From: an uncultured Deinococcales bacterium
Lineage (GTDB): Bacteria > Deinococcota > Deinococci > Deinococcales > JAAFIG01
DNA length: 20,401 nt
Assembly: GCA_964247135.1 (NCBI GenBank)
Contig: CAXTTL010000069.1
Location: 1-20,401 of the forward strand
Reading direction: 5' to 3'
The notes beneath the pieces are model-generated. The model worked only from the letters and a program-made list of their open reading frames with translations, was not told the DNA's origin and searched no databases. The number at the start of each line of letters is the position of its first letter. The first letter of the stretch is position 1. This document shows positions 2-20,401 of the stretch, one piece after another. The position numbers and the translations under genes were made by a program.

Positions 2-1345
2 ATGAAGATCAACACGAAAGTTTTAGCCATCACCACATTGTTGGCAATGGGTGTGGGCGCAGGAATTGTCGGCACGCAGGCGCAGTCACCGGTTTCAATC
101 GATTACTGGTTGTGGGATTCAAATCAGTTTCCCGCCTACCAAAAGTGCGGCGTGGATTTTGAAAAAGCCAATCCAGGCATCAAGGTCAAAGTCATTCAAA
201 AGGGCTGGGATGACTACTGGACAGGCATCACCACGGGCTTTGTCAGCGGTACCGCGCCAGATATTTTCACCGACCACCTGGCAAAATACCCAGAATTTGC
301 GTTGAACAAGCAAATCGTTGACATTGCGCCCTGGATCAAAGAGGACAAAGTGCCAACCGATATCTACCAAGGCGATTTGATCAAGCTCTGGGGACGCAGC
401 GGCAAACAGTACGGCTTACCAAAAGATTGGGATACCGTCGCCATTGTCTACAACAAAGCCATGCTCAAAGACGCGGGTATTTCGGAAGCCAGCCTGAACA
501 ACATGACCTGGAATCCAAAAGACGGCGGCACGTTCCAAAAAATTATTGCCAAACTGACCATCGACGCCAATGGCAACCGTGGCGACAGCGCCAACTTTGA
601 CAAGTCCAAAGTCAAGCAATACGGCTTTGTGAGCTTGCCTGGCAACAGCGCCGGTGGCGCTTACGGTCAAACCGAGTGGAGCCACTTCGCAGTCTCCAAC
701 GGCTTTAAATTTACCGACGCACCTTGGGCGACCAAGTACAACTACGACGATCCAAAGCTTGCCGAAAGCTTGCAATGGCAAGCCGACCTGAGCTTGGTCA
801 AAGGTTTTGCCCCGCTCTACAAAGACACCAAAGCCAACAACGGCAACTCGGTCTTTACCGCCGGCAAAGCCGCATTTATTTTCGACGGCTCTTGGAATGT
901 CTCGAGCTACCGCGCCAACTCGAAGTTTGACATTGGCTTTGCCCAATTGCCAAAAGGTCCAGTCGGACGCCGCACCATGTTCAACGGTTTGGCTGACTCG
1001 ATCTGGACGGGCAGCAAGCACCAAAAAGAAGCCTTCCAATGGCTGAAGTACCTGGCTAGCCCAAGCTGCCAGAACACCGTGGGTGACTTCGGTGTGGTCT
1101 TCCCAGCCATTCCGAGCGCGATCAAAAAGTCCGTGGCTGCGTTCAAAAAGAAGGGCGTGGACGTCAGCGCCTTCACCAAAGAGGCATTGGCAAAAGACGC
1201 CACCTTCTTGTTCCCGATCACCGACAACGCCGGCGAAATCGGCGACATCATGACCAAAGTCCTCGACAAGATTTTCTTGGGCGATGCCAAAGCGGCTGAC
1301 CTTTTGAAAGACGCCAACGACAAAGTCAACGCCCTGTTCAAATAA
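2..1345 (+). CDS. Sugar ABC transporter substrate-binding protein (family 1 extracellular solute-binding protein)
   Basis: 447-aa ORF with an N-terminal Sec signal peptide (MKINTKVLAITTLLAMGVGAGIVGTQA). CUT1 SBP motifs are present: FEKANPGIKVKV, GTAPDIF, GKQYGLP, IVYNKAML, GKAAFIFDGSW, EAFQWLKYL. The start lies at the window edge, so no upstream context is visible. Confidence 0.93.
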   Translation: MKINTKVLAITTLLAMGVGAGIVGTQAQSPVSIDYWLWDSNQFPAYQKCGVDFEKANPGIKVKVIQKGWDDYWTGITTGFVSGTAPDIFTDHLAKYPEFALNKQIVDIAPWIKEDKVPTDIYQGDLIKLWGRSGKQYGLPKDWDTVAIVYNKAMLKDAGISEASLNNMTWNPKDGGTFQKIIAKLTIDANGNRGDSANFDKSKVKQYGFVSLPGNSAGGAYGQTEWSHFAVSNGFKFTDAPWATKYNYDDPKLAESLQWQADLSLVKGFAPLYKDTKANNGNSVFTAGKAAFIFDGSWNVSSYRANSKFDIGFAQLPKGPVGRRTMFNGLADSIWTGSKHQKEAFQWLKYLASPSCQNTVGDFGVVFPAIPSAIKKSVAAFKKKGVDVSAFTKEALAKDATFLFPITDNAGEIGDIMTKVLDKIFLGDAKAADLLKDANDKVNALFK

Positions 1346-1353
1346 CCAATCTC

Positions 1354-1383
1354 GAGGAACTCGTGGCAAGCCACGAGTTCCTC
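1354..1383. other. Perfect 14-bp inverted repeat after the SBP gene; probable mRNA-stabilising stem-loop
   Basis: GAGGAACTCGTGGC-AA-GCCACGAGTTCCTC begins 8 nt after the SBP stop. It is followed by AAAA rather than a U-tract on the + strand. Confidence 0.75.
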
Positions 1384-1410
1384 AAAACCCATCTGACTCG
1401 AGGTGAACCG

Positions 1411-3081
1411 ATGAATGTTCCAAAAATCTTGCTGGCAAGTTCCAGCCTCCTGCTGGTGGCTTGTTCTGCGCGGAGCGAGTCCTCGGGTTCAGCTCGAGCT
1501 TCGCTGCCCAGCGTGCCTGTGACGTTTCAAACCAGCAAACTTTCGGCGGCGACAACTTGCTCCTCGAGTTTTATCACACACGATTTAAACCACACCACTG
1601 TTCCGCGCCAAGGAGATCGGGTGGTTTATGACAGTAACGGTTCGGGCGTGGCGGTTGGCGACCTGGATCATGATGGTCTGAGCGACATCGTGCTGGGCAA
1701 CATTGGCGCGGCGAGCAGCATTCAGTGGAATTTGGGAGATTTTAAATTCAAATCCCAGGAACTTTTAAACAACCTCGGGCTACCCGAAAGTCAAACTCGA
1801 GCCGTGTCGTTGGTGGATGTCAACAATGACGGTTGGTTGGACATTGTCCTCACGCACTCGCAAGGCGGGATTTCGGCTTGGATCAACAACCACAAAAAAG
1901 GCTTCACGCTCGAGACTTTGAGCGGCGTGGATTTCCCCGCGTACACCATGATTTGGGATGATCTGAGCGGCACGGGAAAACTCGATTTGGTCACGGCTTC
2001 TTATGATGCGTTGCTCGAGACGGAGTTAAAAGATTCGTTTTTGCTCTCTCGGGGGGCTGGCGTGGTGGTTTACAACCGCAGCGGCAAGCAATTTGAGGCG
2101 ACGCGGTTGGCAAAATCCTCGCAAACCCTGGCGTTGGCGCTTTATGACGTGAACAACGACGGCAAACGAGATTTGATCGTCGGCAACGATTTTGCGGTGC
2201 CAGATTTGGCATTTTTAAACGGCACTTGGAAAGCCGTTAAACCCTTTAAACGCACCACCAAAAACACCATGGGCTTCTCGAGCAGCGACATTGACAACGA
2301 CGGCAAACTCGAGCTTTTTGCCACGGACATGAAACCAAAAATGGATGATGAAAAAGTGATTGCCAAATGGATCACCTTTATGCAAAAAACCTATGAGAAA
2401 TCACAATACAGCAGCCTGCAACGCGCCGAAAACGTGCTCGAGCGCCAAAACCCCGACGGCAGCTTTCAAAACATTGCTTATGAGCTTGGCTTGGATGCCA
2501 CGGGTTGGAGTTGGTCGGCAAAATTTGGCGATTTGAACAACGACGGTTATGAAGATTTGTACATCGTCAACGGCATGATCGACACCCAAAATTTAAAGCA
2601 TCTGCCCAACAACGAACTGGTCGAAACCAACAAAGCCTACCTCAACACCCACGGCGCATTTCAGATCATGCCAAGTTGGAATTTAGGCTCGAGCGCCAGC
2701 GGGCGCGGCATGAGCATGAGTGACCTCAACAACGACGGTCAACTGGACATTGTGGTCAACAACCTTGGCAAACCCGCCCAGGTTTTCGAGAATCAACTTT
2801 GCGGCGGCAACAGCCTGGAAGTTGAACTGAACTGGCTCGGCTCGAGCAACACCAAAGGCATTGGCGCAAAAGTATTTCTCAACTCAAGCGCAGGAACAAT
2901 GCAGCGTGAAGTCTTAAGCCAGAGCGGATATTTGAGCGGCAACGACCCCAGAATTCATTTTGGCATTCCCAAAGATTCAGCCCTCGAAAGTCTCGAGGTG
3001 GTCTGGTCGGACGGCAAGCGTTCAGTGATTGAAAAACCCGAAGCCAACAGCATTTTAAACATCTCGAGGAGTGCCAAATGA
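1411..3081 (+). CDS. CRTAC1-family lipoprotein (FG-GAP/VCBS beta-propeller repeats plus C-terminal ASPIC/UnbV domain)
   Basis: Start re-called at ATG 1411 (SD GAGGTG at 1400-1405). Lipobox LLVAC. Repeated D-x-[DN]-x-DG-x-x-D motifs: DLDHDGLSD, DVNNDGWLD, DVNNDGKRD, DIDNDGKLE, DLNNDGYED, DLNNDGQLD. ASPIC/UnbV signature GIGAKV...QREV...SGYLSGNDPRIHFGI...EVVWSDG. Confidence 0.9.
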   Translation: MNVPKILLASSSLLLVACSARSESSGSARASLPSVPVTFQTSKLSAATTCSSSFITHDLNHTTVPRQGDRVVYDSNGSGVAVGDLDHDGLSDIVLGNIGAASSIQWNLGDFKFKSQELLNNLGLPESQTRAVSLVDVNNDGWLDIVLTHSQGGISAWINNHKKGFTLETLSGVDFPAYTMIWDDLSGTGKLDLVTASYDALLETELKDSFLLSRGAGVVVYNRSGKQFEATRLAKSSQTLALALYDVNNDGKRDLIVGNDFAVPDLAFLNGTWKAVKPFKRTTKNTMGFSSSDIDNDGKLELFATDMKPKMDDEKVIAKWITFMQKTYEKSQYSSLQRAENVLERQNPDGSFQNIAYELGLDATGWSWSAKFGDLNNDGYEDLYIVNGMIDTQNLKHLPNNELVETNKAYLNTHGAFQIMPSWNLGSSASGRGMSMSDLNNDGQLDIVVNNLGKPAQVFENQLCGGNSLEVELNWLGSSNTKGIGAKVFLNSSAGTMQREVLSQSGYLSGNDPRIHFGIPKDSALESLEVVWSDGKRSVIEKPEANSILNISRSAK

Positions 3082-3824
3082 ACGCCACATTTTCGCCAAA
3101 AACAAGTCTTCTTGATCTGTTCAGGTTGCGCGGCAGAACCACCATCATCGCGCTGGCTGCCACGATAGGTTTGGTCTTGGCAGGCGTTCTGGTGACTCGA
3201 GTTGGCTTTCCGATTTGGGGCGGCACAATTTTGTTTTTGGGCGTGATAGCCGTGCCAGTCAGCCTGAAATGGCACGACGATCTGGTTTCGCTCGGCACGG
3301 CGGCTTGTGTGCTCAGCGTCTTGCTGGCATTGCAAGGTTTTCACACCATCGAGCACATCGTGCAACTGATGCAGTTTTACGTTTTTGATCGCCCAGGCAT
3401 TCAATCGCAAGGACTCATCTCGAGCCTGAACGTCGAATGGGTGCATTTTGTCTGGAACTGGCTGGCGTGGGGTTTGGTCGCCTACCTTTTTAAGAACGGA
3501 ATGCGCGGCGTTTGGAGTTACCCGCTGATGGTCTGGATTTCGCTTCACACCCTCGAGCACACCTACATGCTGCTGCATTACTTGCACGTGGCTGCCGAAG
3601 TCGGAGCGCTTGGACTGCCGCAATTCAGCGCCGAACAGGTGCTCCCAGGCGTTCTCGGGCGCGACGGCTGGCTCGCCAACAACATTTTGCTGTGCCGTGG
3701 CATTCCTGGCTTGACCACCCTGCCGCGCGTGGCGATTCACTTTTACTGGAATATGGGCGAAATGACCCTGCTGTTGCTGGCGGCAAAAGAATCTTTTCCC
3801 AAAATGATCAAACCAAAACCTTAA
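3078..3824 (+). CDS. Multi-pass membrane protein of unknown function with duplicated HxxEH and HFxWN motifs
   Basis: 248 aa with about 6 hydrophobic segments. ATGA overlap with the upstream gene and SD GAGGAG at 3066-3071. Motifs QGFHTIEH...EWVHFVWN and LHTLEH...IHFYWN. Confidence 0.85.
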   Translation: MNATFSPKTSLLDLFRLRGRTTIIALAATIGLVLAGVLVTRVGFPIWGGTILFLGVIAVPVSLKWHDDLVSLGTAACVLSVLLALQGFHTIEHIVQLMQFYVFDRPGIQSQGLISSLNVEWVHFVWNWLAWGLVAYLFKNGMRGVWSYPLMVWISLHTLEHTYMLLHYLHVAAEVGALGLPQFSAEQVLPGVLGRDGWLANNILLCRGIPGLTTLPRVAIHFYWNMGEMTLLLLAAKESFPKMIKPKP

Positions 3825-3871
3825 CCTCGCCCCTCGAGTTGTCTCGAGCATTCAAAAAGGAGCATTCACCT

Positions 3872-5251
3872 GTGAGACAAGCCAAAATCACCCTGATCGG
3901 TGCGGGCAGCACCGTTTTCGCCAAGAATTTGTTGGGCGACATCCTCAGTTACCCAGAACTTTCAAACTCGAGAATCTTTTTGTTCGACATTGACCCTGAA
4001 CGCCTGAGGACTTCGGTGATCGTCGCCAAAAAGGTTTCTGAGGCACTGGGCGTCAAACCCGAAATTATTGCCACCACCGACGCCGAGCAAGCCCTGGACG
4101 GCGCAGATTATGCCATCAGCATGATTCAAGTGGGTGGTTATAAGCCGTCTACCGTGATCGATTTTGAGATTCCTAAAAAGTACGGTTTGCAGCAAACCAT
4201 TGCCGACACGCTGGGCATTGGCGGCATCATGCGCGGCTTGCGCACCATTCCCGTGCTGCTCGAGTACACCCGCATCATGGAACGGGTCTGCCCCGACGTG
4301 CTGCACCTCAATTACGTCAACCCAATGGCGATGAATTGCTTGGCGCTGGCTAAAGCCAGCAAAATCAAATTGGTTGGTTTGTGCCACAGCGTGCCGCACA
4401 CCGCCAAAGAACTCGCGCAAGACCTGGGCATCCCGCCCGAAGAGGTGCATTATCTGGTGGCGGGCATCAACCACATGGCGTTTTACCTGACGCTCGAGCG
4501 TCACCACCAGGACGGCAAAAAAGAAAACCTGTACCCCAAATTGCGCGAATTTCTCGAGCGCGGCAAGTTCACGCACCGCGTTTCTGCCGACATGCCCTGG
4601 GGCTTGACCGATGCCGTGCGCTATCAGGTTTTGAAGCACTTTGGTTACAGCGTGACCGAATCGAGCGAGCACTTTTCCGAGTACACGCCGTGGTTCATTA
4701 AAAACAACCGCCCAGACTTGCTCGATCGTTTCAACATTCCAATCGACGAGTACATTCGCCGCTGCGAACTGAACATTGCCAAATGGGAAAGCCTGCGCAT
4801 CGACCTCGAGGATGAAAACAAGAAACTCGAGGTCAAACGCAGCGTCGAATACGGCAGTTTGATTGTTCACAGCCATGAAACGGGTCAACCCAGGGTGATT
4901 TACGGCAACGTGCCAAACAAGGGCTTGATCGATAATTTGCCAGCCGATTGTTGCGTCGAAGTGCCGTGTTTGGTGGACAAAAACGGCATTCAACCGACCA
5001 AAATTGGCATGTTGCCGCCGCAACTCGCCGCCATGATGCGCACCAACGTCAACGTCCAGGAATTGACCGCCGAAGCCGCGCTGACTGGCAGCCGCGAGCA
5101 TGTCTATCACGCCGCCATGATGGACCCACACACGGCAGCCGAACTCGATTTGGATCAAATTCACAACCTCGTGGACGATCTTCTCGAGGCACACGGCAGC
5201 ATGATTCCGAATATTGCCAGTAAATCAAAAGCCGAGTTAATTGCGGTTTAA
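3872..5251 (+). CDS. melA: GH4 NAD+/Mn2+-dependent alpha-galactosidase (alpha-glucosidase/alpha-galactosidase family)
   Basis: Start re-called at GTG 3872 (SD AAGGAG at 3857-3862). GH4 motifs: KITLIGAGS, DFEIPKKYGLQQTIADTLGIGGI, LNYVNPMAM, GLCHSV, AGINHMA, TESSEH, AAMMDPHTAAEL. Confidence 0.92.
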   Translation: MRQAKITLIGAGSTVFAKNLLGDILSYPELSNSRIFLFDIDPERLRTSVIVAKKVSEALGVKPEIIATTDAEQALDGADYAISMIQVGGYKPSTVIDFEIPKKYGLQQTIADTLGIGGIMRGLRTIPVLLEYTRIMERVCPDVLHLNYVNPMAMNCLALAKASKIKLVGLCHSVPHTAKELAQDLGIPPEEVHYLVAGINHMAFYLTLERHHQDGKKENLYPKLREFLERGKFTHRVSADMPWGLTDAVRYQVLKHFGYSVTESSEHFSEYTPWFIKNNRPDLLDRFNIPIDEYIRRCELNIAKWESLRIDLEDENKKLEVKRSVEYGSLIVHSHETGQPRVIYGNVPNKGLIDNLPADCCVEVPCLVDKNGIQPTKIGMLPPQLAAMMRTNVNVQELTAEAALTGSREHVYHAAMMDPHTAAELDLDQIHNLVDDLLEAHGSMIPNIASKSKAELIAV

Positions 5252-5334
5252 AGACTGTCCCTCGCAGGGTTGCAAGTGTCACGGTGAACTGAGCTTCAGT
5301 CAAACGACTGAATTTCAGGAAGTCTGAAAGGAAC

Positions 5335-7404: not shown

Positions 7405-7473
7405 CCTGAGAGATTATGAGATTGTCTTACACATTGCTCAATCCTTCCTGCCCTCCCCTATCCAAGCGGCTCG

Positions 7474-7500
7474 GGAACTTCTACAATGAAACCCACGTAT
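7474..7500 (+). promoter_or_regulatory. Putative ECF sigma-dependent (autoregulatory) promoter
   Basis: GGAAC (7474-7478)-N17-CGTAT (7496-7500) matches the general ECF AAC/CGT promoter architecture and lies directly upstream of an ECF gene. Confidence 0.6.
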
Positions 7501-7510
7501 GGGTTTTGAA

Positions 7511-8062: not shown

Positions 8063-9699
8063 CGAACGAATTTGATGTTGTGGCGCAAGCCATTCACAGC
8101 TTGCCTCGGGTGAACGCACCTGTTGGGTTTGCCGCAAGTTTGAGTGCCGAACTCGAGACTTGTCTATTGCTCGAAGGGCTTGAACGCATTCACGCGCCAC
8201 CCGATTTTGCCAAGTTGATGGCGACTGAAATCTCGAGTGGTGCAGCATTGTCAGGGCATCTCGAGTTGCTGTCCAAGGTTGCTGTGCCTGAAGCTTTCGC
8301 CTTTCAAGTCTCGAGCGAAATTGCCCAAAGTGCTTTGCTTGCCCAGATTCCTCGGGTGAGCGCACCCGACAGTTTTGCGGCAAAAATATCGCACGCGATT
8401 GCTAATAATGCTTTGCAAGCCGACATTCCCGCCATTCCTCGAGTGAGCGCCCCTGCCGGTTTCGCTCGGCAACTTGCGGCGAGTATTGCCCTCGATGCCG
8501 AACTGAGCAGTCCGTCAGCCCTGCTCGAGGCTCAACTGAGCAGCATTCCTCGAGTGAACGCCCCAGCAACATTCGCCTCGAGCCTTGCCGCCAAAATCCA
8601 AGCCGATGTTGTGGAGCTTGAAAACCCTGATCGCACGCCATTGTATTTCGTGTTTACCTTGCTGGCTGGCGCTGGTTTGGGTTTGATCGGGCTGTCCTGG
8701 AATTATGCCAGCGTCACCGCTCGAGCCGTGATCGATTTGGTTCAAGCGCTGCCTGTCAGTTTGATCGTCTCCGCCTTAATTGTTACCCTGCTTGCCGCTT
8801 TCGCCAGTGGCTCGAGGCGCAATGTCGGGGCGCTCGCCAGTACGATTGCCTTTGGGGTTTGCGCCGCCCTGGTGCTACCGCAAGCCGCGCCATTTTTTGG
8901 CTCGAGTGTGATCGCTGGAGTTCACAATTCCAGCATCGTGCGCTTTGGCGGTGACATTACGGTCAGCGGCACGGTCAACGGCGATGTGGTCAGCATTGGC
9001 GGCAATGTCAGGCTCGAGCCGAGAGCCAGCGTCACGGGCAAAGTCATGACCTTTTTGGGTGATGTCAATTTACCAGCCGACACCCGCAAAGTTGGTGGCG
9101 TCAGTGCAGTGTTGGGTCGTTTTCACAGCGATGCCGTGCAAACCATTCCCGCCCAAAGCGCCAATCTACCTGGTTTAAGTGCCGCCAGCGCTTTACAACC
9201 CTTCAAAAACCTCTTCGGCTCGAGCAATTGGCACTGGGTGTACCTGCTGGTGATTGCCGTCTGTGCCGCCGCCTTGCAATTGTTCAACTGGGAAAAACAG
9301 CTCGAGCGTCATTTTAAACTCGAGGCTGGACGCGCCACGGGCATCGGTTTGCTGCTGGTGATTTTGACGCTGCCGCTGGCGACCTTGGGCGGTTTAAGTC
9401 TGGTCGGTGCGCCGTTTGCCATTCTCATCTCGAGCTTCACGATTTTTGCCTTGACCGTCGGCATGGGTTTAAGTTGCAGTTTGCTCGGGCGTTCGATCTT
9501 GAAACGCCTGGGTTTGAAGCTCGAGCCTTGGGTTGGAAGCGTGCTCGGTTTGGGCGTGTACGCGCTGACGTTGTTTGTGCCAGTCTTGGCAGTTTCATTG
9601 TGGCTGCTGGGTGGAGCTTGGGGCGCTGGGGCACTGATTTTGGCATGGCGTCAACATGAATTGCGCATCCCAAATGCCTTAAAAGCCGTGATTGACTGA
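8059..9699 (+). CDS. Putative membrane anti-sigma factor with six N-terminal repeats, a bactofilin-like (polymer-forming) beta-helix segment and multiple TM helices
   Basis: GTGA overlap with the ECF gene. Six PRVxAPxxFAxxL/I-type repeats, about 3 TM helices, a GGDITVSGTVNGDVVSIGGNVRL beta-solenoid segment, then about 5 C-terminal TM helices. The anti-sigma role is inferred from gene position. Confidence 0.72.
   Translation: MTNEFDVVAQAIHSLPRVNAPVGFAASLSAELETCLLLEGLERIHAPPDFAKLMATEISSGAALSGHLELLSKVAVPEAFAFQVSSEIAQSALLAQIPRVSAPDSFAAKISHAIANNALQADIPAIPRVSAPAGFARQLAASIALDAELSSPSALLEAQLSSIPRVNAPATFASSLAAKIQADVVELENPDRTPLYFVFTLLAGAGLGLIGLSWNYASVTARAVIDLVQALPVSLIVSALIVTLLAAFASGSRRNVGALASTIAFGVCAALVLPQAAPFFGSSVIAGVHNSSIVRFGGDITVSGTVNGDVVSIGGNVRLEPRASVTGKVMTFLGDVNLPADTRKVGGVSAVLGRFHSDAVQTIPAQSANLPGLSAASALQPFKNLFGSSNWHWVYLLVIAVCAAALQLFNWEKQLERHFKLEAGRATGIGLLLVILTLPLATLGGLSLVGAPFAILISSFTIFALTVGMGLSCSLLGRSILKRLGLKLEPWVGSVLGLGVYALTLFVPVLAVSLWLLGGAWGAGALILAWRQHELRIPNALKAVID
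8092..8610 (+). repeat. Six degenerate intragenic protein repeats of about 22-37 aa
   Basis: LPRVNAPVGFAASL, LERIHAPPDFAKLM, LSKVAVPEAFAFQV, IPRVSAPDSFAAKI, IPRVSAPAGFARQL, IPRVNAPATFASSL. DNA similarity is visible at about 8101, 8347, 8434 and 8545. Confidence 0.85.
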
Positions 9700-9700
9700 C

Positions 9701-11266: not shown

Positions 11267-11275
11267 GTGGGTCTG

Positions 11276-11281: not shown

Positions 11282-11332
11282 CGGCGCGACGGGGGTTCAG
11301 TGTTTCGAGAATCGGGCTTGACAAATCCTGGC

Positions 11333-11368: not shown

Positions 11369-11387
11369 ATCCAAATCGAGAGGTGAA

Positions 11388-11954: not shown

Positions 11955-11962
11955 AACAATCT

Positions 11963-12519: not shown

Positions 12520-12623
12520 GAATTCTCGAGCCGTCAAAGTTCTCCTGCATCGGGCAAATTCTGTTACCAGTCCGAGGGTACTATTTTAAACTCGAGACTC
12601 GAAAAAAACAATTTCAAAGTGGT

Positions 12624-12652
12624 TTGAAAACGTGGCATTTTGAGCCTAAAAT
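12624..12652 (+). promoter_or_regulatory. Sigma-A-type promoter giving a leaderless transcript
   Basis: TTGAAA (12624-12629)-N17-TAAAAT (12647-12652)-N6-ATG (12659), with no SD sequence. Confidence 0.7.
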
Positions 12653-12658
12653 GCTGGC

Positions 12659-13144
12659 ATGGCTTTACCTTTTTCTGAATTGCTCGAGCGTGCGGATGAA
12701 GCGGGTATTCGCATTGAAATGATGAACGGAATCCCGATCTGGGAAGCCAGCCCTGCGTTTCGTCATCAGCGCGAATCATTTCGCATTCAACAAAGTATCA
12801 AACGTCTCGGTGATTGTGGTTGTCACCATGTCGCCGATGTGTACGTGAAGTTCTCAGACAAATCGATCAAACGTCCTGACATCAGTATTTTTTGCCAAGA
12901 ACCTGCCGAACTTGACGAGGCAATTACCCTCATTCCAGAGGCAGTCATCGAAATTATTTCTGTGGGTTACGAGATCAAAGACAAAGAACTTGCGCCAAAG
13001 TTTTATCTCGAGAATGGCGTCAAAGACATTTTGGTCTTCGACCCACGCAGTCTGGAAATTTGGCACCACACGACAACGGGAACTCGAGAATTCACTTCGC
13101 CCACGGTTTTTGAACTACTTTGTGGATGCTCGGTCAAAATTTAG
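12659..13144 (+). CDS. Uma2-family (DUF820) PD-(D/E)xK endonuclease-fold protein
   Basis: Motifs IEMMNG..., SPAFRHQ, KRPDISIF, PEAVIEIIS, KDKE...FYLENGVKDILVFDP. Confidence 0.88.
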   Translation: MALPFSELLERADEAGIRIEMMNGIPIWEASPAFRHQRESFRIQQSIKRLGDCGCHHVADVYVKFSDKSIKRPDISIFCQEPAELDEAITLIPEAVIEIISVGYEIKDKELAPKFYLENGVKDILVFDPRSLEIWHHTTTGTREFTSPTVFELLCGCSVKI

Positions 13145-13716
13145 GATTCTTCTGGTTCTGCATCGGGTAAATTCTGGTACAAATCTGACAACACAATTTC
13201 CAACTCGAGGCTAACGAATCTGAGATTTGAATCGTTCGTAAAACGTTCGTAAATCCATTTGTCGTTGCTTCTCAAGAAAACCTCCGCCACAGGTTCGTTT
13301 TGCGAAAGCAGCACGTACTGCTCGAGGCTGGGAATGGTTTGGTATTGCTCCCACTTTTCGCCTCGGTCAATGGCTTCTGTGCTCTGTGAAAGCACTTCGA
13401 TCAAAATATTCGGGCGGTACACAACACGGTTTGTATCGAGGCTCGAGTCACAAGTCACCAGAACATCGGGGTAATAACCTTTGCCGCTCGGCATTCGCGT
13501 AATAACATCTGCAAAATACGTGTAGCAGCCTCGAGCGACAGAAATCGGCAGGAGTTTTGAGTAAAGCATTCCTGCAACAAAGTTATGCCGTTTTAAACCC
13601 CCTGCCATGATAAACAGATTACCATCCACAAACTCGTGCCTCACGTCGGAGGTCGTCTCAAAACGCACGTAATCTTCAAACGTGGCGACGGTTTTGACTG
13701 GCGAAACACGAGGCAT
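13141..13716 (-). CDS. Uma2-family (DUF820) endonuclease
   Basis: Motifs RHEFVDGNLFIMAGG..RH, YYPDVLVTC, PNILIEVLSQSTEAIDRGEK..YQTIPSLEQYVLLSQ. Confidence 0.93.
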   Translation of the reverse strand: MPRVSPVKTVATFEDYVRFETTSDVRHEFVDGNLFIMAGGLKRHNFVAGMLYSKLLPISVARGCYTYFADVITRMPSGKGYYPDVLVTCDSSLDTNRVVYRPNILIEVLSQSTEAIDRGEKWEQYQTIPSLEQYVLLSQNEPVAEVFLRSNDKWIYERFTNDSNLRFVSLELEIVLSDLYQNLPDAEPEES

Positions 13717-13721
13717 GATTC

Positions 13722-13727
13722 AGTATA
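13722..13727 (-). promoter_or_regulatory. -10 box (TATACT) for a leaderless Uma2 transcript
   Basis: The minus strand reads TATACT-N5-ATG with no SD sequence. Confidence 0.6.
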
Positions 13728-13774
13728 CTCGAGATTTTTAGATTGGATTTTAGCCACTCAAGGTATCAATAAAC

Positions 13775-13800
13775 TCCCTTCTCTCCTTGGAGAGAAGGGA
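13775..13800 (-). terminator. 12-bp perfect hairpin downstream of der; intrinsic terminator or REP-like element
   Basis: TCCCTTCTCTCC-TT-GGAGAGAAGGGA. On the minus (der) strand it is followed by GTTTATT. Confidence 0.6.
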
Positions 13801-13852
13801 CCCTGCCCGTTAGGTGCATTTTACGGTCAAGAGAGAGGGAGCAACTCGAGTT

Positions 13853-15283
13853 TTACTTTTTGTCAACTTTTTCCGCTGCCGCTTTGCGCCGTTCACTGCG
13901 TGAACTCGGCGGTTTGGAACCGCGTTCACCCTCGAGCGCGTGTTCCTCACGGGCAATTTCGGCTTTGCTCGAGGTTTTCTCTTTCTTCTGGAATGCCGCC
14001 CCACGTTCGCGCCAGACGATGCGCACGGGAATACCTGGAAGCTCGAGGTCTTCGCGGATGCGGTTGCGCAAGAAGCCTTCGTAAGCTCGAGTGACAAAGT
14101 CTGCCCTGTTACAAAAAATCACAAAGGTTGGCGGCGCAATTTCGGCTTGGGTCATGTAATACATTTTCAAAGGCTTGCCCTTAAAGTTTGGCATCTGTTG
14201 ACGCATCTGCCAAACCTCGAGCCAGCGGTTGAGGTCGCCCGTACTCACCCTGGTTTGCCAGAGCGTATAAAGTTTGGTGCATTCGGCGAGCAGTTCATGA
14301 ATGCCGTACTCGTTGATCGCACTGGTGTACACCCTGGGCGCAAAATCGAGGTGATTAAGACGTTGACTGATGTCTTTTTCGACTTTTTTCAGGTTTTCTT
14401 CAGGCACCAAATCCCACTTATTGATGATGATGATGACGGGTTTTCCCGCGTCATACGCCATGTTTGCCAGTTTCATTTCGTGGTCGCCCAATTCAAACGG
14501 GTCAATCACCAGCAAATTGATATCGGAGTTTCTGATGCTTTGCTCAGAGCGAAGTTGCGCAAACAGCTCAATGTTGTCCTTGGGGCGGTGGCGAATGCCG
14601 GCGGTGTCAATCAAGATAAAACGCTGACCCGCGTAATTAAATTCAATATCAATCGCATCTCGAGTCGTTCCGGCAATCGGCGAAACGATCACGCGATCCG
14701 AACCCGTGATGGCGTTCAACATGCTCGATTTGCCCGTGTTGGGGCGTCCGATCAATGCCACGCGAATTGGCGAAACGTCCGTAATCTCTTCGTCATCTTT
14801 GGGCAGAATCTCGAGCACCCTGTCCATCACGTCGTCCAAACCCCTGGCGTGTTCGGCGCTGGTCGGCATCGGGTCGCCAAAACCGAGTTGATACAAATTT
14901 AAAAGCAAGTTTTCTTGCTTGTTCGAGTCAATCTTGGTGGCGACCAAAATCACGGGTTTGCCCAACCGTCGCAACCACATCGCAATCTCTTCATCGGCGC
15001 TCGAGAGTTCGGTGCGGGCATCGACGGCAAAAAGCACGACTTGGGCATCGTGAATTGCCATTTCGGCTTTCTCGAGGATTTTGGCTTCCCACTCGTCACC
15101 GCTCCAGAGTCCGCCGGTGTCCATCAACAGAATGCGGTGGTTTTCATAGAGCATGAATTCTTCTTTGACATCGCGTGTCACACCTGGTTCGTCGGCAACC
15201 ACGGCGGAGCGTTTGCCGATCATGCGGTTGAACAAACTTGATTTGCCCACGTTTGGGCGTCCTACAATGGCTACTTTATGCAT
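13853..15283 (-). CDS. der: Ribosome biogenesis GTPase Der (EngA)
   Basis: Two tandem G domains (GRPNVGKSS/DTGG/TKID and GRPNTGKSS/DTAG/NKWD) plus a KH-like C-terminus (TQAEIAPPTFVIF). SD GAGGA. Confidence 0.97.
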   Translation of the reverse strand: MHKVAIVGRPNVGKSSLFNRMIGKRSAVVADEPGVTRDVKEEFMLYENHRILLMDTGGLWSGDEWEAKILEKAEMAIHDAQVVLFAVDARTELSSADEEIAMWLRRLGKPVILVATKIDSNKQENLLLNLYQLGFGDPMPTSAEHARGLDDVMDRVLEILPKDDEEITDVSPIRVALIGRPNTGKSSMLNAITGSDRVIVSPIAGTTRDAIDIEFNYAGQRFILIDTAGIRHRPKDNIELFAQLRSEQSIRNSDINLLVIDPFELGDHEMKLANMAYDAGKPVIIIINKWDLVPEENLKKVEKDISQRLNHLDFAPRVYTSAINEYGIHELLAECTKLYTLWQTRVSTGDLNRWLEVWQMRQQMPNFKGKPLKMYYMTQAEIAPPTFVIFCNRADFVTRAYEGFLRNRIREDLELPGIPVRIVWRERGAAFQKKEKTSSKAEIAREEHALEGERGSKPPSSRSERRKAAAEKVDKK

Positions 15284-15441
15284 TCACAGTTCCTCTACAC
15301 CCCAAGTCTATACTGGGGTTGCTCAGTGTACACGAGTCAATCAAGATTTGCTGTGATGCGAATTTTTGAAGGCTTCTGGTATTTTTTCTCAGTTCTCGCA
15401 CAGTTAATTCAGTAAACTACAATCTAACGGAGGTGCTCGAG

Positions 15442-15975
15442 GTGCTTAAACAGATTGCGTTGGTGTTGGTTGGAGGCTTGCTCGCCATCGGTGGTTTTAT
15501 GGCTGGGCGCTCGAGTGCGCCAAAAGAAATAATCACCATGAATCAAGCCATTCCTGGTTTATTTCGGGTGCAAAACACGCAACAAGCCGCGCCCGTCAAT
15601 CCAAACAACGATGCTCGAGAGTTGATTCCCCTCAACCCGAATGGGCAGCAGCCGCAACCTGGTCAGGGGCAAAAACCGCAGGATTGTCCAGTGCAAATTT
15701 TTCAGGATGGAAAGTTGTACACCTTCCCGCAGCCTGGACAGCAGCCACAACCTGGGCAGCAAAATGGCAATCAGCCTGGGCGCGGCGGTCAGCCGCAAGA
15801 GTTGGTTCCGTTGCAACCCAGTGCGCCGAGTACCACACCTCAACCGAACACACCACAAAATACGCCAGCTCAACCTCGAGCGGTGCCGATTCAACCCAAC
15901 ACCCCAAATACCCCAAGTGATCCAGAAAATCCTTTGAATCCTTTCGCACCAACCCTGCCGAACACCCGCAGTTAA
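15442..15975 (+). CDS. N-terminally anchored Pro/Gln/Asn-rich hypothetical protein, first gene of the MoxR operon
   Basis: Start re-called at GTG 15442 (SD GGAGG at 15429-15433; ORF track starts at 15433). One TM/signal helix, then low-complexity P/Q sequence with two EL[IV]PL motifs. Confidence 0.8.
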   Translation: MLKQIALVLVGGLLAIGGFMAGRSSAPKEIITMNQAIPGLFRVQNTQQAAPVNPNNDARELIPLNPNGQQPQPGQGQKPQDCPVQIFQDGKLYTFPQPGQQPQPGQQNGNQPGRGGQPQELVPLQPSAPSTTPQPNTPQNTPAQPRAVPIQPNTPNTPSDPENPLNPFAPTLPNTRS

Positions 15976-15998
15976 ATTCTCAATTGGGAGCAAAACAC

Positions 15999-17063
15999 AT
16001 GGATGATATGAGTTCCAAACCAACCATCGAACCAAGTTCCGTGGTCGAAGCCGCCGCCAAACTGCGCACGCTTTTGTTTGAAGTCAAACGCGTGATCGTC
16101 GGGCAAGATTTGATGCTCGAGCGGATGCTGGTGGCGCTCCTTTCCAGGGGGCATATCTTGATCGAAGGCGTGCCTGGACTTGCCAAAACCTTGGCGATCA
16201 AAACCACCGCCGATGCGATTGGTGCCACATTCAGGCGCATTCAGTTCACGCCCGACCTGGTGCCAGCCGATTTGATCGGCACCCGAATTTACAACCAGAA
16301 AGAATCCAAATTCGAGGTCGAACTCGGACCGATCATGGCGAATTTGGTGCTGGCAGACGAGATCAACCGCGCACCCGCCAAAATCCAGAGTGCGCTGCTC
16401 GAGGCGATGCAGGAACGCCAGGTCACGATTGGACAGCAAACCTTCAAACTGCCCGACCCGTTCTTGGTGCTCGCCACTCAAAACCCCATCGAGTCCGAGG
16501 GCACGTACTTTCTGCCAGAAGCCCAGGTGGATCGTTTTATGTTTAAAGTGATTATCGGCTATCCTGGTTTCCACGAGGAAATGACCGTGGTGGACAGGGT
16601 CAGCACCAAATTCGAGGCGATCAATAAAGTCATCTCGAGCGAGGAATTGCGCGGCTTGCAGGAGATGGCAGACCGAATTTACGTGCATCCAAACGTGACC
16701 GAGTACGCCGTGCGCTTGGCTCGAGCCACGCGCGACCCGAGCGAAGCCAAACTGCCAGAACTGAAAAAGTACATCTCCTACGGTTCTTCGCCGCGCGGCA
16801 GTGTGAATCTGATTTTGGGCGCGAAGGCATTGGCAGTCTTGCGCGGACGCGAGTACGCCCTGCCCGAAGACGTGCGCGACCTCGCCCCAGAAATTTTGCG
16901 CCACCGCATCATGCCGTCCTACGAAGCACTGGCGGACGAGAAAAAAATGGAAGACTTTATCGACATGATCTTAAAAGCCATTCCACTGCCAAAAGTGCAC
17001 ATGGGCGACCCGTACAAAACCCAGAACAACAATCTGGCGGCTGGCATGGAAGTCAATCTTTAA
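15999..17063 (+). CDS. moxR: MoxR-family AAA+ ATPase (MoxR proper subfamily)
   Basis: Walker A GHILIEGVPGLAKT, RIQFTPDLVPADLIG, Walker B LADEINRAPAKIQSALLEAMQE, ATQNPIESEGTYFLPEAQVDRF, SPR. Start ATG 15999 with SD GGGAG. Confidence 0.95.
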   Translation: MDDMSSKPTIEPSSVVEAAAKLRTLLFEVKRVIVGQDLMLERMLVALLSRGHILIEGVPGLAKTLAIKTTADAIGATFRRIQFTPDLVPADLIGTRIYNQKESKFEVELGPIMANLVLADEINRAPAKIQSALLEAMQERQVTIGQQTFKLPDPFLVLATQNPIESEGTYFLPEAQVDRFMFKVIIGYPGFHEEMTVVDRVSTKFEAINKVISSEELRGLQEMADRIYVHPNVTEYAVRLARATRDPSEAKLPELKKYISYGSSPRGSVNLILGAKALAVLRGREYALPEDVRDLAPEILRHRIMPSYEALADEKKMEDFIDMILKAIPLPKVHMGDPYKTQNNNLAAGMEVNL

Positions 17064-17111
17064 ACCTTTCAAATTCGTATACCGTTCTTGAGAACTCGAG
17101 AAAATGAAAAC

Positions 17112-18056
17112 ATGCTGACCTTAACCCGACCAAAACCCAAAACGCTCGACGTTCGTCCCGAACCCAAAGCCCCAGAATTGCCCGAGGCTTTGCTGCGCAG
17201 GCTCGAGTTGAAAGTCATTAAGCGGCTGGACGGGTTTTTGTTTGGCGATTATTCGGGCATTTTTTACGGTCCCAGCCTCGACCTCGCCGAAATCCGCGAG
17301 TACCAACCTGGCGACGAGGTGCGGCGCATGGATTGGAATGTCACGGCGCGGTCAGGCAAATTGCACGTGCGCCAATACCGTGAAGAGCGCGAAATCACCG
17401 CCTGGATGGTGGTTGACCTTTCCAAAAGCATGACCTTTGGCACAAGGCGGGTTTTAAAACGAGATTTGGCACTCGAGTTTGCTGGTGTGCTCTCGAGCAT
17501 TATCACGCGGCACGGCGACAAGATTGGCTGCTTGGGCGTCAACGAGGCGGGCATCAAATTTGTGCCGCCGCGCACAGGTCGGGCGCAAACGCTAAACATT
17601 TTGCATCAACTTTCTCACCTCGAGCAAAACTTTGCCCCAGGAAATTTCAGCAACCTCGAGGCAGCACTCGAACGGGTTGAACGCACTTTAAAACGGCGTA
17701 CCATGTTGTTTGTGGTTTCGGACTTCATGGACGCCAATTCCGAATGGGCACAGCCGCTCGGACGCCTCGCGCAACGCCATGACGTGATCGCCGTGCGAAT
17801 CTCTGATCCGGCGGAGCGCGAATTGCCCAACGTCGGCGGCGTGCGATTCCGCGATCCCGAGTCTGGCAGCGAGGTCTGGGTGGACACCAGCAACCCCAAA
17901 GTTCGCCTTGCCCATGCCAAAATGGTCTTAAATCGCAACGAACGCGTGGCTCGAGCCTTCAGGGGCGCTCGGGTCGATGCGCTCGAGTTGAGCACCCATC
18001 TCGAGGTGATCGCCCCAATCATGAAATTTACCCTCAAACGTCGAGGTCGCCGATGA
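17112..18056 (+). CDS. DUF58 domain protein (VWA-like MoxR partner)
   Basis: Motif EIREYQPGDEVRRMDWNVTAR...VRQYREERE, then VDLSKSM and VVSDF. The start is either 17088 (TTG) or 17112 (ATG). Confidence 0.92.
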   Translation: MLTLTRPKPKTLDVRPEPKAPELPEALLRRLELKVIKRLDGFLFGDYSGIFYGPSLDLAEIREYQPGDEVRRMDWNVTARSGKLHVRQYREEREITAWMVVDLSKSMTFGTRRVLKRDLALEFAGVLSSIITRHGDKIGCLGVNEAGIKFVPPRTGRAQTLNILHQLSHLEQNFAPGNFSNLEAALERVERTLKRRTMLFVVSDFMDANSEWAQPLGRLAQRHDVIAVRISDPAERELPNVGGVRFRDPESGSEVWVDTSNPKVRLAHAKMVLNRNERVARAFRGARVDALELSTHLEVIAPIMKFTLKRRGRR

Positions 18057-18090
18057 ACAACCTCCCAAGCCAACTCGAGGAGCGAACATC

Positions 18091-19137
18091 ATGACTTTCA
18101 CCTGGCCACTGCTGTTGTTCTTGATGCTGCTGGTGCCGCTGGCAATCTGGTTTGTGCGCCGCAGCGCCAAAGGTCGGATCGATACCGCCACCGCCTATGC
18201 CGACTCGAATTTGCTTCCCAATGTGCTCTCAGATTCCAAACAATCGCACTCGAGATGGCCACTGAATTTGCAACTGATCGCCTTGGCGTTGTTGTTGTTT
18301 TCGGCGTCACGCCCCATCGGAGCGCCGCCGTTGCCGGTCAACAAAGCCGCCGTCATGATCGCGCTCGACACCAGCAAGAGTATGCAGGCAACCGATGTCA
18401 GCCCGACCAGGCTCGAGGTTGCCAAAGAAATCGTCAAAGAATTTGTCAAACTCGCGCCTAGCAGCACCATGATCGGTTTGGCAACGTTCTCGGACAGCGC
18501 CGCGATTGTCGTGCCCGCCACCACCGACCGCAGCACCTTGCTCGAGAAACTGAACGGGGTCAAAATTGCTGCCAACACGAGTTTGGCTGATGCGGTGGTC
18601 GGCAGCGTCAGGAGCTTACCTGGGCGCAAAAACGTGGACATTCCAAGCGAATTGTTGGGGCTGAAATCCAATGCCAACCAACCCAAACAGCAACAAATTG
18701 ACCCAAGCACGGGTCAGCCAATCAAACCCGTTGACCCTGCGACCTTACCTCCTGGTGCAATCTTGCTGCTGTCCGACGGTACCAGCAACGTTTCAGCCGA
18801 CCCACAACTGGCAGCCAAATTCGCCAAACAGTACAAAGTCAAACTCTACACTGTGGCGGTCGGCAAAGAGGGCGGCGCGGTCATGCAAATCGACGGCAAA
18901 CAATATTTTGTGCCTTTCACACCCAAAACTTTGGAAAGCATGGCGCTCGAGACCGAGGGTAAATTTGTCTTTCCGCCCGAAAAAGCGGCGCTCGAGAAAA
19001 TCTACAAAGAGCTGGGCACCGTTACCGTTTGGGAAGCCACCAAACTCGAGCTGGGCGGAATCTTGTCGGGCTTGGCAGTGGTCCTGATGCTGACGGGCGC
19101 AGGTTTAAGCCTTCACTGGCAACGCAGGATTCCTTAA
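18091..19137 (+). CDS. VWA domain membrane protein (BatA/B-like)
   Basis: N-terminal BatA-like TM segment (MTFTWPLLLFL), MIDAS DTSKSM...LLSDG, C-terminal TM helix. SD GAGGAG. Confidence 0.92.
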   Translation: MTFTWPLLLFLMLLVPLAIWFVRRSAKGRIDTATAYADSNLLPNVLSDSKQSHSRWPLNLQLIALALLLFSASRPIGAPPLPVNKAAVMIALDTSKSMQATDVSPTRLEVAKEIVKEFVKLAPSSTMIGLATFSDSAAIVVPATTDRSTLLEKLNGVKIAANTSLADAVVGSVRSLPGRKNVDIPSELLGLKSNANQPKQQQIDPSTGQPIKPVDPATLPPGAILLLSDGTSNVSADPQLAAKFAKQYKVKLYTVAVGKEGGAVMQIDGKQYFVPFTPKTLESMALETEGKFVFPPEKAALEKIYKELGTVTVWEATKLELGGILSGLAVVLMLTGAGLSLHWQRRIP

Positions 19138-19147
19138 AGGAGTAGGC

Positions 19148-20104
19148 ATGAACTTTCTTTGGCCATTTCAACTTGTGCTCCTGGTGATCGTGCCATTTTT
19201 GCTGTGGTGGTACTGGCGCGACCAAAAACTTCCAGCCGAAAGCGTGGTCTTTCACCCCGACCTCGAGTTTTTAAAGTCCATCAGCACCCCGACGTTCTCG
19301 AGAAACCGCGACATTCCCGCCATTTTGTACCTGCTGGCACTGGGCTTGGGCATTTTTGCACTTGCCCGTCCAACCGCCGCTTTGCCCGTACCCGACAACA
19401 AAACCACCATCATGCTGGCAATTGACGTTTCCTTATCGATGCGAGCCGATGACATCAAACCCTCGAGGTTCGAGGCTGCCCAAGATGCCGCCAGAATTTT
19501 TATCAAGCAACTTCCGGCTGGCACCAAAATCGGGCTGGTCAGTTTTAGTGGTTATGCCGCCGTCAACGTCGAACCGACCGCCGATCACAGTGCCGTTTTG
19601 GACGCGATAGACCAACTTTCACTCGGGCGAGGGACGGCGATAGGCGCGGGGTTGCAACTTGCTACCCAAGCCCTGCCCGAACGCGGCGAGAATGCCAAAA
19701 TCGTGCGCGGTCAACGCCTCCCGCCCGCCGCCATCGTGCTCTTGACCGACGGACGCAACAACCGTCCACCCGAGCCGCTCGAGATTGCCGCCGAGGTGCG
19801 CAACAAAGACGTGAAAGTGTACACCGTCGGACTCGGCACGGACGCCGGTTCAATCGATTTTCAGGGCGGTGGCATGATGGTCGGTTTTGATCCTGAAATC
19901 CTCAAAAACATTGCCGACACCACTGGCGGCAAATACTTCGAGGCACGCTCGAGCGGAGAACTGCAAAGCATTTACCAAGGTTTGGGACGCAGCATCGGCT
20001 GGTCAACCAAACCGGGCGAAATCACGGGTATTTTTGCGGCTTTGGCAGGACTGATGTTGCTCTCGAGCATTGCCTGGAGCGAACGCTCGAGACGGATTGT
20101 TTAA
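19148..20104 (+). CDS. VWA domain membrane protein (BatA/B-like), paralogue of the upstream gene
   Basis: N-terminal TM segment MNFLWPFQL, MIDAS DVSLSM...GTAIG...LLTDG, VYTVGLGT, C-terminal TM helix. SD AAGGAG. Confidence 0.93.
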   Translation: MNFLWPFQLVLLVIVPFLLWWYWRDQKLPAESVVFHPDLEFLKSISTPTFSRNRDIPAILYLLALGLGIFALARPTAALPVPDNKTTIMLAIDVSLSMRADDIKPSRFEAAQDAARIFIKQLPAGTKIGLVSFSGYAAVNVEPTADHSAVLDAIDQLSLGRGTAIGAGLQLATQALPERGENAKIVRGQRLPPAAIVLLTDGRNNRPPEPLEIAAEVRNKDVKVYTVGLGTDAGSIDFQGGGMMVGFDPEILKNIADTTGGKYFEARSSGELQSIYQGLGRSIGWSTKPGEITGIFAALAGLMLLSSIAWSERSRRIV

Positions 20105-20105
20105 G

Positions 20106-20401
20106 TCACTTGCGGATAAAGTATTTGCCGCCAATGTCCAGGGTTTTGTTTTGTACTCCTGAGCTGAAAAATGACAAGCGTTCGATGTGTTTGTCCGTAA
20201 ATCGCAACTCGAGCGCGTAACCATCAATCCAATACGTTCCAGAGGTTTGGTCGCTCGAGCCGGTGGTTAACCCGCCCTGGTTGTTGGTAGATTCAACAGA
20301 GGCGCCACCAGTGAAATTGATTTCAAAACGACCATCGGCGTAAAACCTACAGCGGTTTTCATAATGGTTGACGCGCCAAACGATAACCGCAATCTAAAAA
20401 C
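20106..20401 (-). pseudogene. 3' fragment of a disrupted or frameshifted gene (beta-rich hypothetical protein)
   Basis: A 95-codon open frame runs from an in-frame TAG (20394-20396) to TGA (20106-20108) with no usable start near its 5' end. The translation looks protein-like: ...FYADGRFEINFTGG...SSDQTSGTYWIDGYALELRFTDKHIERLSFF...LDIGGKYFIRK. Confidence 0.55.

Follow-up and report, generated by a model that had tools for sequence, protein, structure and literature searches.

The hexamer CTCGAG is a genome word of the highly iterated palindrome type in an uncultured Deinococcales family

In cyanobacteria, the highly iterated palindrome (HIP) HIP1 (GCGATCGC) is 15- to 300-fold over-represented, both within and between genes, is conserved beyond codon constraints and has had no accepted function in 30 years, according to the available sections of two studies (PMC5861425; PMC4390886). 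Recent work, as far as its accessible text goes, ties HIP1 to natural transformation (bioRxiv 2024.09.10.611283; PMC13756078). Alternative HIPs are given in the accessible part of one study, namely GGCGCC in Calothrix, GCsGC in Cyanothece PCC 7822 and rCCGGy in Oscillatoria PCC 10802 (Elhai 2015, PMC4390886). For Nocardia, the available portion of a methylome survey describes an orphan CTCGAG methyltransferase, whose motif is clustered at the origin of replication (Blow et al. 2016, PMC4752239). Here, we report a genome word of the HIP type, CTCGAG, in an uncultured family of Deinococcales. The starting point was contig CAXTTL010000069.1, a stretch of 20,401 nucleotides that was analyzed as a whole (the window), for which an initial annotation had proposed a HIP1-like process acting on CTCGAG.

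Other words that shape whole genomes are known. The uptake signal sequences of Pasteurellaceae and the DNA uptake sequences of Neisseriaceae are lineage-specific, nonpalindromic words of 9 to 12 bases that occur about once per kb. They lie in genes and spacers, are thought to accumulate by molecular drive and constrain proteins. In Escherichia coli, very-short-patch repair by the Dcm/Vsr system raises CCWGG genome-wide. HIP1 itself was reportedly found by Xu et al. in 2018 to be distributed periodically on a scale of 10 to 90 kb.

The window contained exactly 135 copies of CTCGAG (6.6 per kb), the number that had been estimated by manual counting, with the first at 901 and the last at 20254-20259. 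At a G+C content (GC) of 52.7%, the zero-order expectation was about 5.5, so the earlier estimate of a 25-fold excess was right. In 100 dinucleotide-preserving shuffles, the mean was 3.73 (standard deviation, 1.8; maximum, 8), and none of the 100 reached 135. The 18 words that differ by one mismatch occurred 0 to 15 times each on the plus strand (CTCGGG 15, TTCGAG 11, CCCGAG 11 and CTCGAA 10), and 135 of the 229 TCGA tetramers were within CTCGAG. As had been proposed, sites were found in all three frames. According to our gene calls, 72 were read as CTC-GAG (Leu-Glu), 30 as xxC-TCG-AGx and 23 as xCT-CGA-Gxx, and 10 were outside called genes. When synonymous codons were shuffled within genes (n = 200), 14.9 ± 3.5 sites were obtained (maximum, 23) versus the 125 coding sites observed. 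Ten sites had been listed as noncoding by the initial annotation. Those at 1351, 12525, 12591, 13728, 13845 and 18074 were indeed intergenic, but those at 1397, 3833, 3843 and 15436 rest on uncertain gene starts or weak open reading frames (ORFs). The span (from the exact count and the gene calls) and the sites between genes (from the gene calls) are as follows.

901..20259, no strand: span with all 135 CTCGAG sites
1351..1356, no strand: site in the spacer that separates the solute-binding protein gene from the FG-GAP/ASPIC gene
12525..12596, no strand: sites 12525 and 12591, in the spacer that separates the glyoxalase-like gene from the first Uma2 gene
13728..13850, no strand: sites 13728 and 13845, in the spacer that separates the second Uma2 gene from engA/der
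18074..18079, no strand: site in the spacer that separates the DUF58 gene from the first BatA/vWA gene
20208..20259, no strand: two sites (20208, 20254) beyond the last called gene

The window is contig 69 of the source genome (G000; 5.09 Mb, 386 contigs, 84% complete). This genome had 33,925 CTCGAG, i.e., 6.66 per kb or about one per 150 bases, with a zero-order observed/expected ratio (O/E) of 24.8. CTCGAG was the commonest hexamer, and the runners-up were hexamers overlapping it. All 386 contigs were enriched, with a minimum of 2.56 and a median of 6.81 per kb, and the excess was thus not restricted to one contig. The one-mismatch neighbors had O/E values of 0.08 to 1.74, which agrees with the earlier claim that the excess is specific to the full hexamer. 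Transition neighbors were the most frequent of these, which would be expected of words that are mostly decayed CTCGAG sites, and neither TTCGAG (1.74) nor CTTGAG (1.17) was depleted. Intergenic DNA carried 7.48 sites per kb (O/E 36.9 at 46% GC), and coding DNA carried 6.60. Convergent, divergent and tandem spacers had 8.05, 7.00 and 7.63 sites per kb, respectively. The 28,724 coding sites comprised 17,981 CTC-GAG (63%), 6,551 xxC-TCG-AGx and 4,192 xCT-CGA-Gxx. Five synonymous-codon shuffles of the genome left 3,944 to 4,066 sites, so that 86% of the coding sites vanished, and three codon-order shuffles left 1,622 to 1,713. As already argued from the window, codon or dipeptide bias is therefore insufficient. 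Among 23,320 Leu-Glu pairs, 17,981 (77%) were spelled CTCGAG, versus 4.9% predicted by context-free codon usage. Among the CTC and GAG codons of the genome, 44% belonged to a CTCGAG site; the shares were 29% for TCG and 32% for CGA. The flanks of the sites were nearly uninformative (at most 0.13 bit per position), and the lengths of palindromic extensions matched chance; the sites are thus not part of a longer repeat resembling repetitive extragenic palindromes (REP) or miniature inverted-repeat transposable elements (MITE). Intergenic sites showed a weak flank preference (A at -3 in 0.44 and G at -1 in 0.35), which was confined to the genus of the source genome.

Conservation of the sites was examined among sister species of the same genus, which share 82 to 90% DNA identity; the pairwise comparison was made with G005 over 210 kb. 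The results showed that 1,213 of 1,558 CTCGAG sites (78%) were intact, versus 38 to 45% for control hexamers. By context, 109 of 166 were intact in intergenic DNA, and 715 of 875, 131 of 193 and 258 of 324 were intact in the three frames. Third codon positions changed less often inside the word than outside. That of CTC had changed in 63 of 820 cases before GAG and in 293 of 842 elsewhere, and that of GAG had changed in 59 of 826 cases after CTC and in 295 of 899 elsewhere. Similarly, the third position of TCG had changed in 20 of 300 cases inside CTCGAG and in 169 of 598 elsewhere, and that of CGA in 24 of 168 and 118 of 283, respectively. After Jukes-Cantor correction, synonymous rates inside CTCGAG were 0.17 to 0.26 of those outside, i.e., 4 to 6 times slower.

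The sites also turned over, as a comparison of orthologues suggested by the initial annotation revealed. In the 210-kb comparison, 345 sites were specific to G000 and 167 to G005. A three-species alignment of 41 kb contained 86 losses and 70 single-species sites, and turnover is near balance. The loss per branch was 0.097 for CTCGAG versus 0.198 for 275 control words. Many single-species sites were two or three bases away from the sequence of the other species along synonymous paths, for example, on the coding strand, from CTG-GAA to CTC-GAG or from xCC-AGG-G to xCT-CGA-G. Some gains altered the protein, for example, from GCC to TCG. At lost sites, 141 of 172 single-mismatch alleles were transitions, spread evenly across all six positions, so nothing points to deamination of methylcytosine, and no excess of C-to-T was seen in the 210 kb. 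The following positions in the window illustrate the turnover.

8524..8582, no strand: sites 8524, 8549 and 8577 of G000, absent from two sister species
14659..14664, minus strand: engA site read as xCT-CGA-G; CCCTGG in both sister species (coding strand xCC-AGG-G), a synonymous three-base difference
14332: mirror case, with a site in one sister species only (G004)
17655..17672: adjacent opposite changes; site 17655 is unique to G000, and 12 bp away, 17667 is a site in one sister species only
18000..18005: CTC-GAG in G000 and TTA-GAG (also Leu-Glu) in both sister species, a site created synonymously

CTCGAG in the source genome has three of the properties by which a HIP is recognized: it is a short palindrome over-represented genome-wide by at least about 15-fold, it occurs in all frames and in noncoding DNA beyond what codon usage gives, and its sites are conserved beyond background and codon conservation. 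The log-odds of CTCGAG over a context-free expectation were 3.6 in intergenic DNA, 4.2 for Leu-Glu, 3.4 for Ser-Ser after xxC and 4.4 for Ala-Arg-Gxx. Such similar values in unrelated contexts are what one DNA-level force with a scaled strength of 3 to 4 would give. The data show a directional DNA-level force, nearly equal at every possible site, that favors the fixation of changes creating the word and hinders the fixation of those destroying it. It acts alike between genes and in all three frames and prevails over the choice among synonymous codons. With a scaled strength of about 3 to 4, it is comparable to strong codon bias.

The force also reached the proteins. No dipeptide in the predicted proteome had a higher O/E than Leu-Glu (2.35); the values were 1.01 for Glu-Leu and 1.62 for Ser-Ser. 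An outgroup was compared over 118 orthologue-like pairs with 37,302 aligned residues; this control is limited to a single genome of very different GC (70%). Leu-Glu was found in 358 places in G000 only and in 274 in the outgroup only, versus 200 and 259 for Glu-Leu. Leu and Glu taken singly were net losers (0.86 and 0.69), and the gain of Leu-Glu in spite of this indicates that CTCGAG has changed amino acid sequences. The force has thus raised the Leu-Glu and Ser-Ser content of proteins.

All 18 sampled relatives from the family of the source genome had 4.3 to 6.8 sites per kb, as calculated with rounded genome sizes. A survey of 251 genomes of the phylum, in which families, genera and genomes are coded f, g and G, gave the following densities.

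Family of the source genome (f1): 5.2 to 6.7 sites per kb
G253 (f3, g36): 7.0 sites per kb (24,536 sites)
G196 (f3, g35): 3.6 sites per kb
g13, g18 and g19 of f5, a neighboring family: 1.4 to 3.5 sites per kb
Several genera of f2: 2 to 2.6 sites per kb
g9 (30 genomes): 0.6 to 1.6 sites per kb
g7, a large Deinococcus-like genus (92 genomes): 0.01 to 0.27 sites per kb

G197, which is placed in the same genus as G253, had 683 sites (0.30 per kb), which is the chance level. The GC of G197 and G253 was 52.6% and 53.1%, respectively, at the one locus read. The two genomes share 73% identity in engA and are thus not close, in spite of the shared genus. High-GC relatives had 0.6 to 2.9 sites per kb with no drive evident, and a Thermus-like outgroup piece had 1.87. 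In g7, CTCGAG was below chance, yet the search for an XhoI-family nuclease gave no match in these 92 genomes. Named species were represented by one 50-kb plasmid piece each, which may not reflect their chromosomes: 1.26 sites per kb in Allomeiothermus silvanus, 0.90 in Thermus thermophilus HB8 and 0.16 in Deinococcus radiodurans. A suggestion in the initial annotation that some Meiothermus genomes are rich in CTCGAG is compatible with the f5 genera; the A. silvanus piece has only 1.26 sites per kb. In a scan of viral contigs for three sites in about 90 bp, the densest loci examined among at least 80 matches were on contigs with a high GC (58 to 71%), at which CTC-GAG codons are common, and they allow no conclusion on viruses. 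Only five sequencing runs contained 5 to 9% of the sampled words, and no RNA run was listed. The enrichment is thus graded across the phylum, from 0.01 to 7 sites per kb, and appears on or off within one genus, which is new. Together with the active maintenance of the sites, its spread over a whole lineage upholds the proposal of a HIP1-like, genome-wide process at the DNA level. No report of CTCGAG hyper-abundance was found in the literature searched, with subscription journals and supplements outside the search. The motif tables of methylome surveys, such as that of Blow et al., may list CTCGAG for cultivated relatives.

Many words are shaped by restriction in this genome. GAGCTC was absent from the window and from the genome (0 observed versus 1,369 expected), and the O/E was 0.016 for GGCC, 0.006 for CCGCGG, 0.011 for CAGCTG and 0.066 for CCSGG. 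The words that match the nucleases of G000 were the most depleted, which indicates that restriction shapes the genome; CTCGAG alone goes the opposite way. Nearly all other 6-base palindromes were also extremely depleted, with 1 occurrence of GGGCCC, 3 of CGGCCG and 7 of GGATCC. All six type II methylases identified in G000 adjoin nucleases, which are SacI-like, NgoPII, Eco29kI, MvaI/BcnI, NotI-like and PvuII (contigs C320, C14, C178, C189, C207 and C36). The other methylases were type I or MmeI-like. Across the family, methylase families were numerous and varied between genomes, and only the type I HsdM was common to all five genomes inspected. G011, a family genome in a single contig, had no PF01555 match, and G008 had no C5 methylase. 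For the methylase search as a whole, specificity cannot be read from sequence, and G000 is 84% complete.

Neither the XhoI-family endonuclease (PF04555) nor the Vsr endonuclease (PF03852) was found in any of the 19 genomes of the family. The XhoI-family nuclease was present in 4 of the 251 genomes of the phylum, none of them in an enriched lineage. Orthologues of the XhoI-linked methylase (63 to 73% identity) were found in four genomes of other families; the family of G000 had no close orthologue, and only partial matches of 33 to 47% identity were seen. The suggestion that a cognate methyltransferase with methylation-directed repair is responsible thus gained no ground: the nuclease, Vsr, a close methylase orthologue, an unpaired type II methylase and an excess of C-to-T were all missing from the material searched. 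In G031, from a neighboring family, an XhoI-family nuclease gene is broken by one TGA and one TAG (G031:C1:1095688-1096226, L012/L013), and an intact Eco57I-type methylase adjoins it. An orphan CTCGAG methylase might arise in this way.

Three further candidates were considered. The SacI-like nuclease with its D12 methylase, present in G000, G011 and probably G005, was rejected since it is absent from G008, G010, G015 and G009, which still have 4.3 to 6.2 sites per kb. GAGCTC counts were 114 to 568 in three of these four genomes (G008, G010 and G015), in line with the loss of GAGCTC where the pair is present. Uma2 (PF05685) had 24 matches in G000 and 4 to 39 per family genome. It was rejected because the enriched genomes G253 and G196 have 3 and 0, and unenriched Thermus-like genomes have 10 to 16. 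The window holds two Uma2-family genes of the PD-(D/E)XK type, which are convergent with a small overlap (12659-13144, plus strand; 13141-13716, minus strand). ComEC and DprA were present in all five genomes checked, including G000, so that natural transformation is possible in this organism.

Our preferred reading, to which we give a probability of about 0.45, is that the bias acts at uptake, recombination or heteroduplex repair. A putative protein would recognize CTCGAG while DNA is taken up, recombined or corrected for mismatches. Alleles with CTCGAG would thereby be favored in transmission, in a molecular drive of the biased-gene-conversion or uptake type. The source of the bias would be neither a restriction-modification system nor very-short-patch repair of the Vsr type. 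Molecular drive has been argued for DNA uptake sequences and, in recent work, also for HIP1 of cyanobacteria. A bolder version, which we think unlikely, is a methylation-independent, sequence-specific "genome-writing" drive, in which a novel kind of protein biases the repair of heteroduplexes or incoming DNA toward CTCGAG and can be switched on or off between sister lineages. Such a drive would fill entire genomes with the word and alter proteins, and its two states would be those seen at equal GC with 7.0 and 0.3 sites per kb. If true, it would belong to an undescribed class of mechanism and might account for HIP1 as well.

Several points weigh against the preferred reading. The agent was not found among the nucleases, methylases, Vsr, Uma2 and competence genes examined, and the stage at which the bias would act is accordingly placed by analogy. 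The competence genes fail as a discriminator, since the unenriched G197 has both ComEC and DprA. A pure uptake-sequence model is awkward, since a filter on uptake should be saturated at about 7 sites per kb. Gains from resolved one-off ancestors were 6 of 110 (0.018 versus 0.012 per branch), which is inside the range of the controls. The reduction in loss to 0.17 to 0.26 of the control corresponds to a strength of about 2.3 to 3, below the 3.4 to 4.4 obtained from equilibrium, and the agreement is only rough. Pairs of sites less than about 60 bp apart were under-represented. Variable neighbors within 100 bp had changed in opposite directions more often than expected (69 versus 54; 44% opposite expected, p = 0.008). 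The pair deficit and these opposite changes are a hint that local density is under some selection, a feature not expected from pure drive, and population genetics is unable to separate weak selection per site from biased conversion.

On larger scales, the variance of gains minus losses among windows matched independence (ratio, 0.97 to 1.23), and compensation between windows was therefore rejected. Regular spacing was rejected as well: the variance/mean ratio of counts was 0.80 at 200 bp, for which the short-range deficit of pairs can account, and exceeded 1 from 1 kb upward. Short-range statistics on the contigs of G000 showed no 10.5-bp helical phasing of CTCGAG. Overall, the evidence for selection on local site density is weak.

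A different explanation follows the view of HIP1 put forward by Elhai: an orphan DNA methyltransferase marks CTCGAG, the methylated word is functional, and selection keeps a site every 100 to 200 bp. The function might be strand discrimination in mismatch repair, control of replication or methylation-dependent transformation. In the accessible parts of the sources, HIP1 is linked to the orphan methylases DmtA and DmtC (PMC4390886; PMC13756078), its methylation boosts transformation more than 100-fold (bioRxiv 2024.09.10.611283), and Nocardia supplies a precedent for CTCGAG itself (PMC4752239). The deficit of close pairs and the weak local compensation would also fit selection on density. Nevertheless, we consider this explanation improbable, as the six type II methylases identified in G000 are paired with nucleases of other specificity and the rest are type I or MmeI-like, HsdM alone is shared by the five genomes with PF01555 and C5 methylases missing from G011 and G008, respectively, the XhoI-linked methylase has no close orthologue, Vsr is absent from all 19 genomes, and the even spread of mismatches carries no deamination signature. 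Alternatively, an abundant protein of the nucleoid or DNA-binding kind could bind to CTCGAG, with each site under weak selection and chromosome compaction or architecture shaped by how densely the sites lie. Such a role is said to have been proposed for HIP1 by Xu and co-authors. Conservation of the sites, their equal density in the three kinds of spacer, the scarcity of pairs closer than about 60 bp and the preference for A at -3 and G at -1 in intergenic flanks all speak for it. Helical phasing was not seen, however, counts were over-dispersed at 1 kb and above, the flank preference is limited to one genus, and no candidate protein is known, so a binding site seems doubtful to us.

Two other explanations fare worse. 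If error-prone or templated repair wrote CTCGAG and fixation were unbiased, the many single-species sites two or three bases from the other species would be accounted for, as would an equilibrium excess somewhat above what loss rates predict. But mutation bias alone would not slow loss at synonymous positions 4- to 6-fold, and multi-base differences along synonymous paths are expected at a third-position divergence of about 30%; we regard this account as very unlikely. Finally, the word could be seen as a by-product of the usage of codons and dipeptides or as left over from a high-GC ancestor that preferred CTC and GAG, in view of the 63% share of CTC-GAG among coding sites, of the densities that high-GC relatives reach with no evident drive and of that of the Thermus-like piece. 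This account is practically untenable, because synonymous shuffles remove most coding sites, intergenic DNA is the most enriched, gains are still ongoing and G197, of the same genus and equal GC as G253, has only 0.3 sites per kb. The codon-bias, relic and artifact explanations are thus refuted.

CTCGAG was sparser in compositionally atypical DNA of G000. Density was 4.2 sites per kb in the 5% of genes whose codon usage was most atypical and 5.8 to 7.2 in the remaining classes. Of the 2,034 genes with a length of 900 bp or more, only 11 lacked CTCGAG. The longest gaps were mostly islands of 27 to 40% GC. These islands (C13:11893-14537, C70:14168-16419, C20:7986-9674 and others) had no CTCGAG for 1.7 to 2.6 kb and no GGCC, and they are possibly recently acquired DNA. 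C112, a 15.5-kb contig resembling a plasmid or conjugative element, had 3.55 sites per kb, about half of the genomic density. It encodes a ParB-like protein, an HNH endonuclease and a methylase-SNF2 helicase fusion of 1,499 residues.

Some other features of the window were noted. At 15984-20104, genes for a MoxR AAA ATPase, a DUF58 protein and two BatA/vWA proteins are consecutive, as in an ordinary operon of the Bat aerotolerance-like type. At 2955-5251, long ORFs overlap on both strands (3078-3824 and 3512-5251, plus strand; 3962-5194, minus strand), and the two that were searched had no Pfam match. Since CTCGAG has no stop codon in any of the six frames, spurious ORFs become longer, and the gene calls in this region are uncertain. 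The final 53 to 56 bases (window 20348-20400) recur with 98 to 100% identity at or near the ends of C70, C71, C104, C172 and C21. They are probably a repeat that breaks the assembly.

These findings add a second, independent and denser case to HIP1 and show that the phenomenon is general, with another word in another phylum. What is essential can now be told apart from what may be peculiar to HIP1: a fixation bias at the DNA level is seen again, as are site turnover and a cost to proteins, and an orphan methylase was not found here. The graded phylum (0.01 to 7 sites per kb) and the on/off pair G253/G197 are natural experiments for finding the agent. Genera with complete genomes reach 2 to 3.5 sites per kb and may include cultivable strains. 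In practice, XhoI would cut such DNA into pieces of about 150 bp, and the six open frames of CTCGAG lengthen spurious antisense ORFs, which can mislead gene callers.

Like HIP1, CTCGAG is highly over-represented (25- to 37-fold in G000), occurs in all frames and in spacers and is conserved. It differs in being a different word, of 6 rather than 8 bases, in a different phylum. Its density, 6,660 per Mb, is 2.5 to 20 times that of HIP1, given as 300 to 2,700 per Mb in the accessible text of PMC4390886. Its effect on the proteome is visible, a cognate orphan methylase was not found among the methylases identified in G000, and the word is a classic restriction site whose matching nuclease is present in 0 of 19 family genomes. 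Like uptake sequences, CTCGAG is lineage-specific and lies in genes and spacers, and core competence genes are present in G000; it does not qualify as an uptake sequence, being a 6-base palindrome at 6.7 per kb. With Dcm/Vsr, it shares a sequence-specific, repair-like bias that shifts word frequencies genome-wide. In contrast to that system, Vsr is absent from the family, TTCGAG and CTTGAG are not depleted, and the effect is an order of magnitude larger. The Nocardia system has the same word, which in the described part of that work is methylated without a partner nuclease and presumed to have a cellular role. There the clusters are local to the origin, whereas G000 is saturated genome-wide and no such methylase was found. 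The alternative cyanobacterial HIPs, as far as the available sections describe them, show that the iterated word varies between lineages, can have 5 or 6 bases and is gained or lost between close relatives, a behavior paralleled by G253 and G197 (7.0 versus 0.3 sites per kb) in one genus. Those alternatives, in the same sections, are single genomes in a phylum that bears HIP1, whereas CTCGAG marks a whole family (19 of 19 genomes, including G000) and is graded in further genera.

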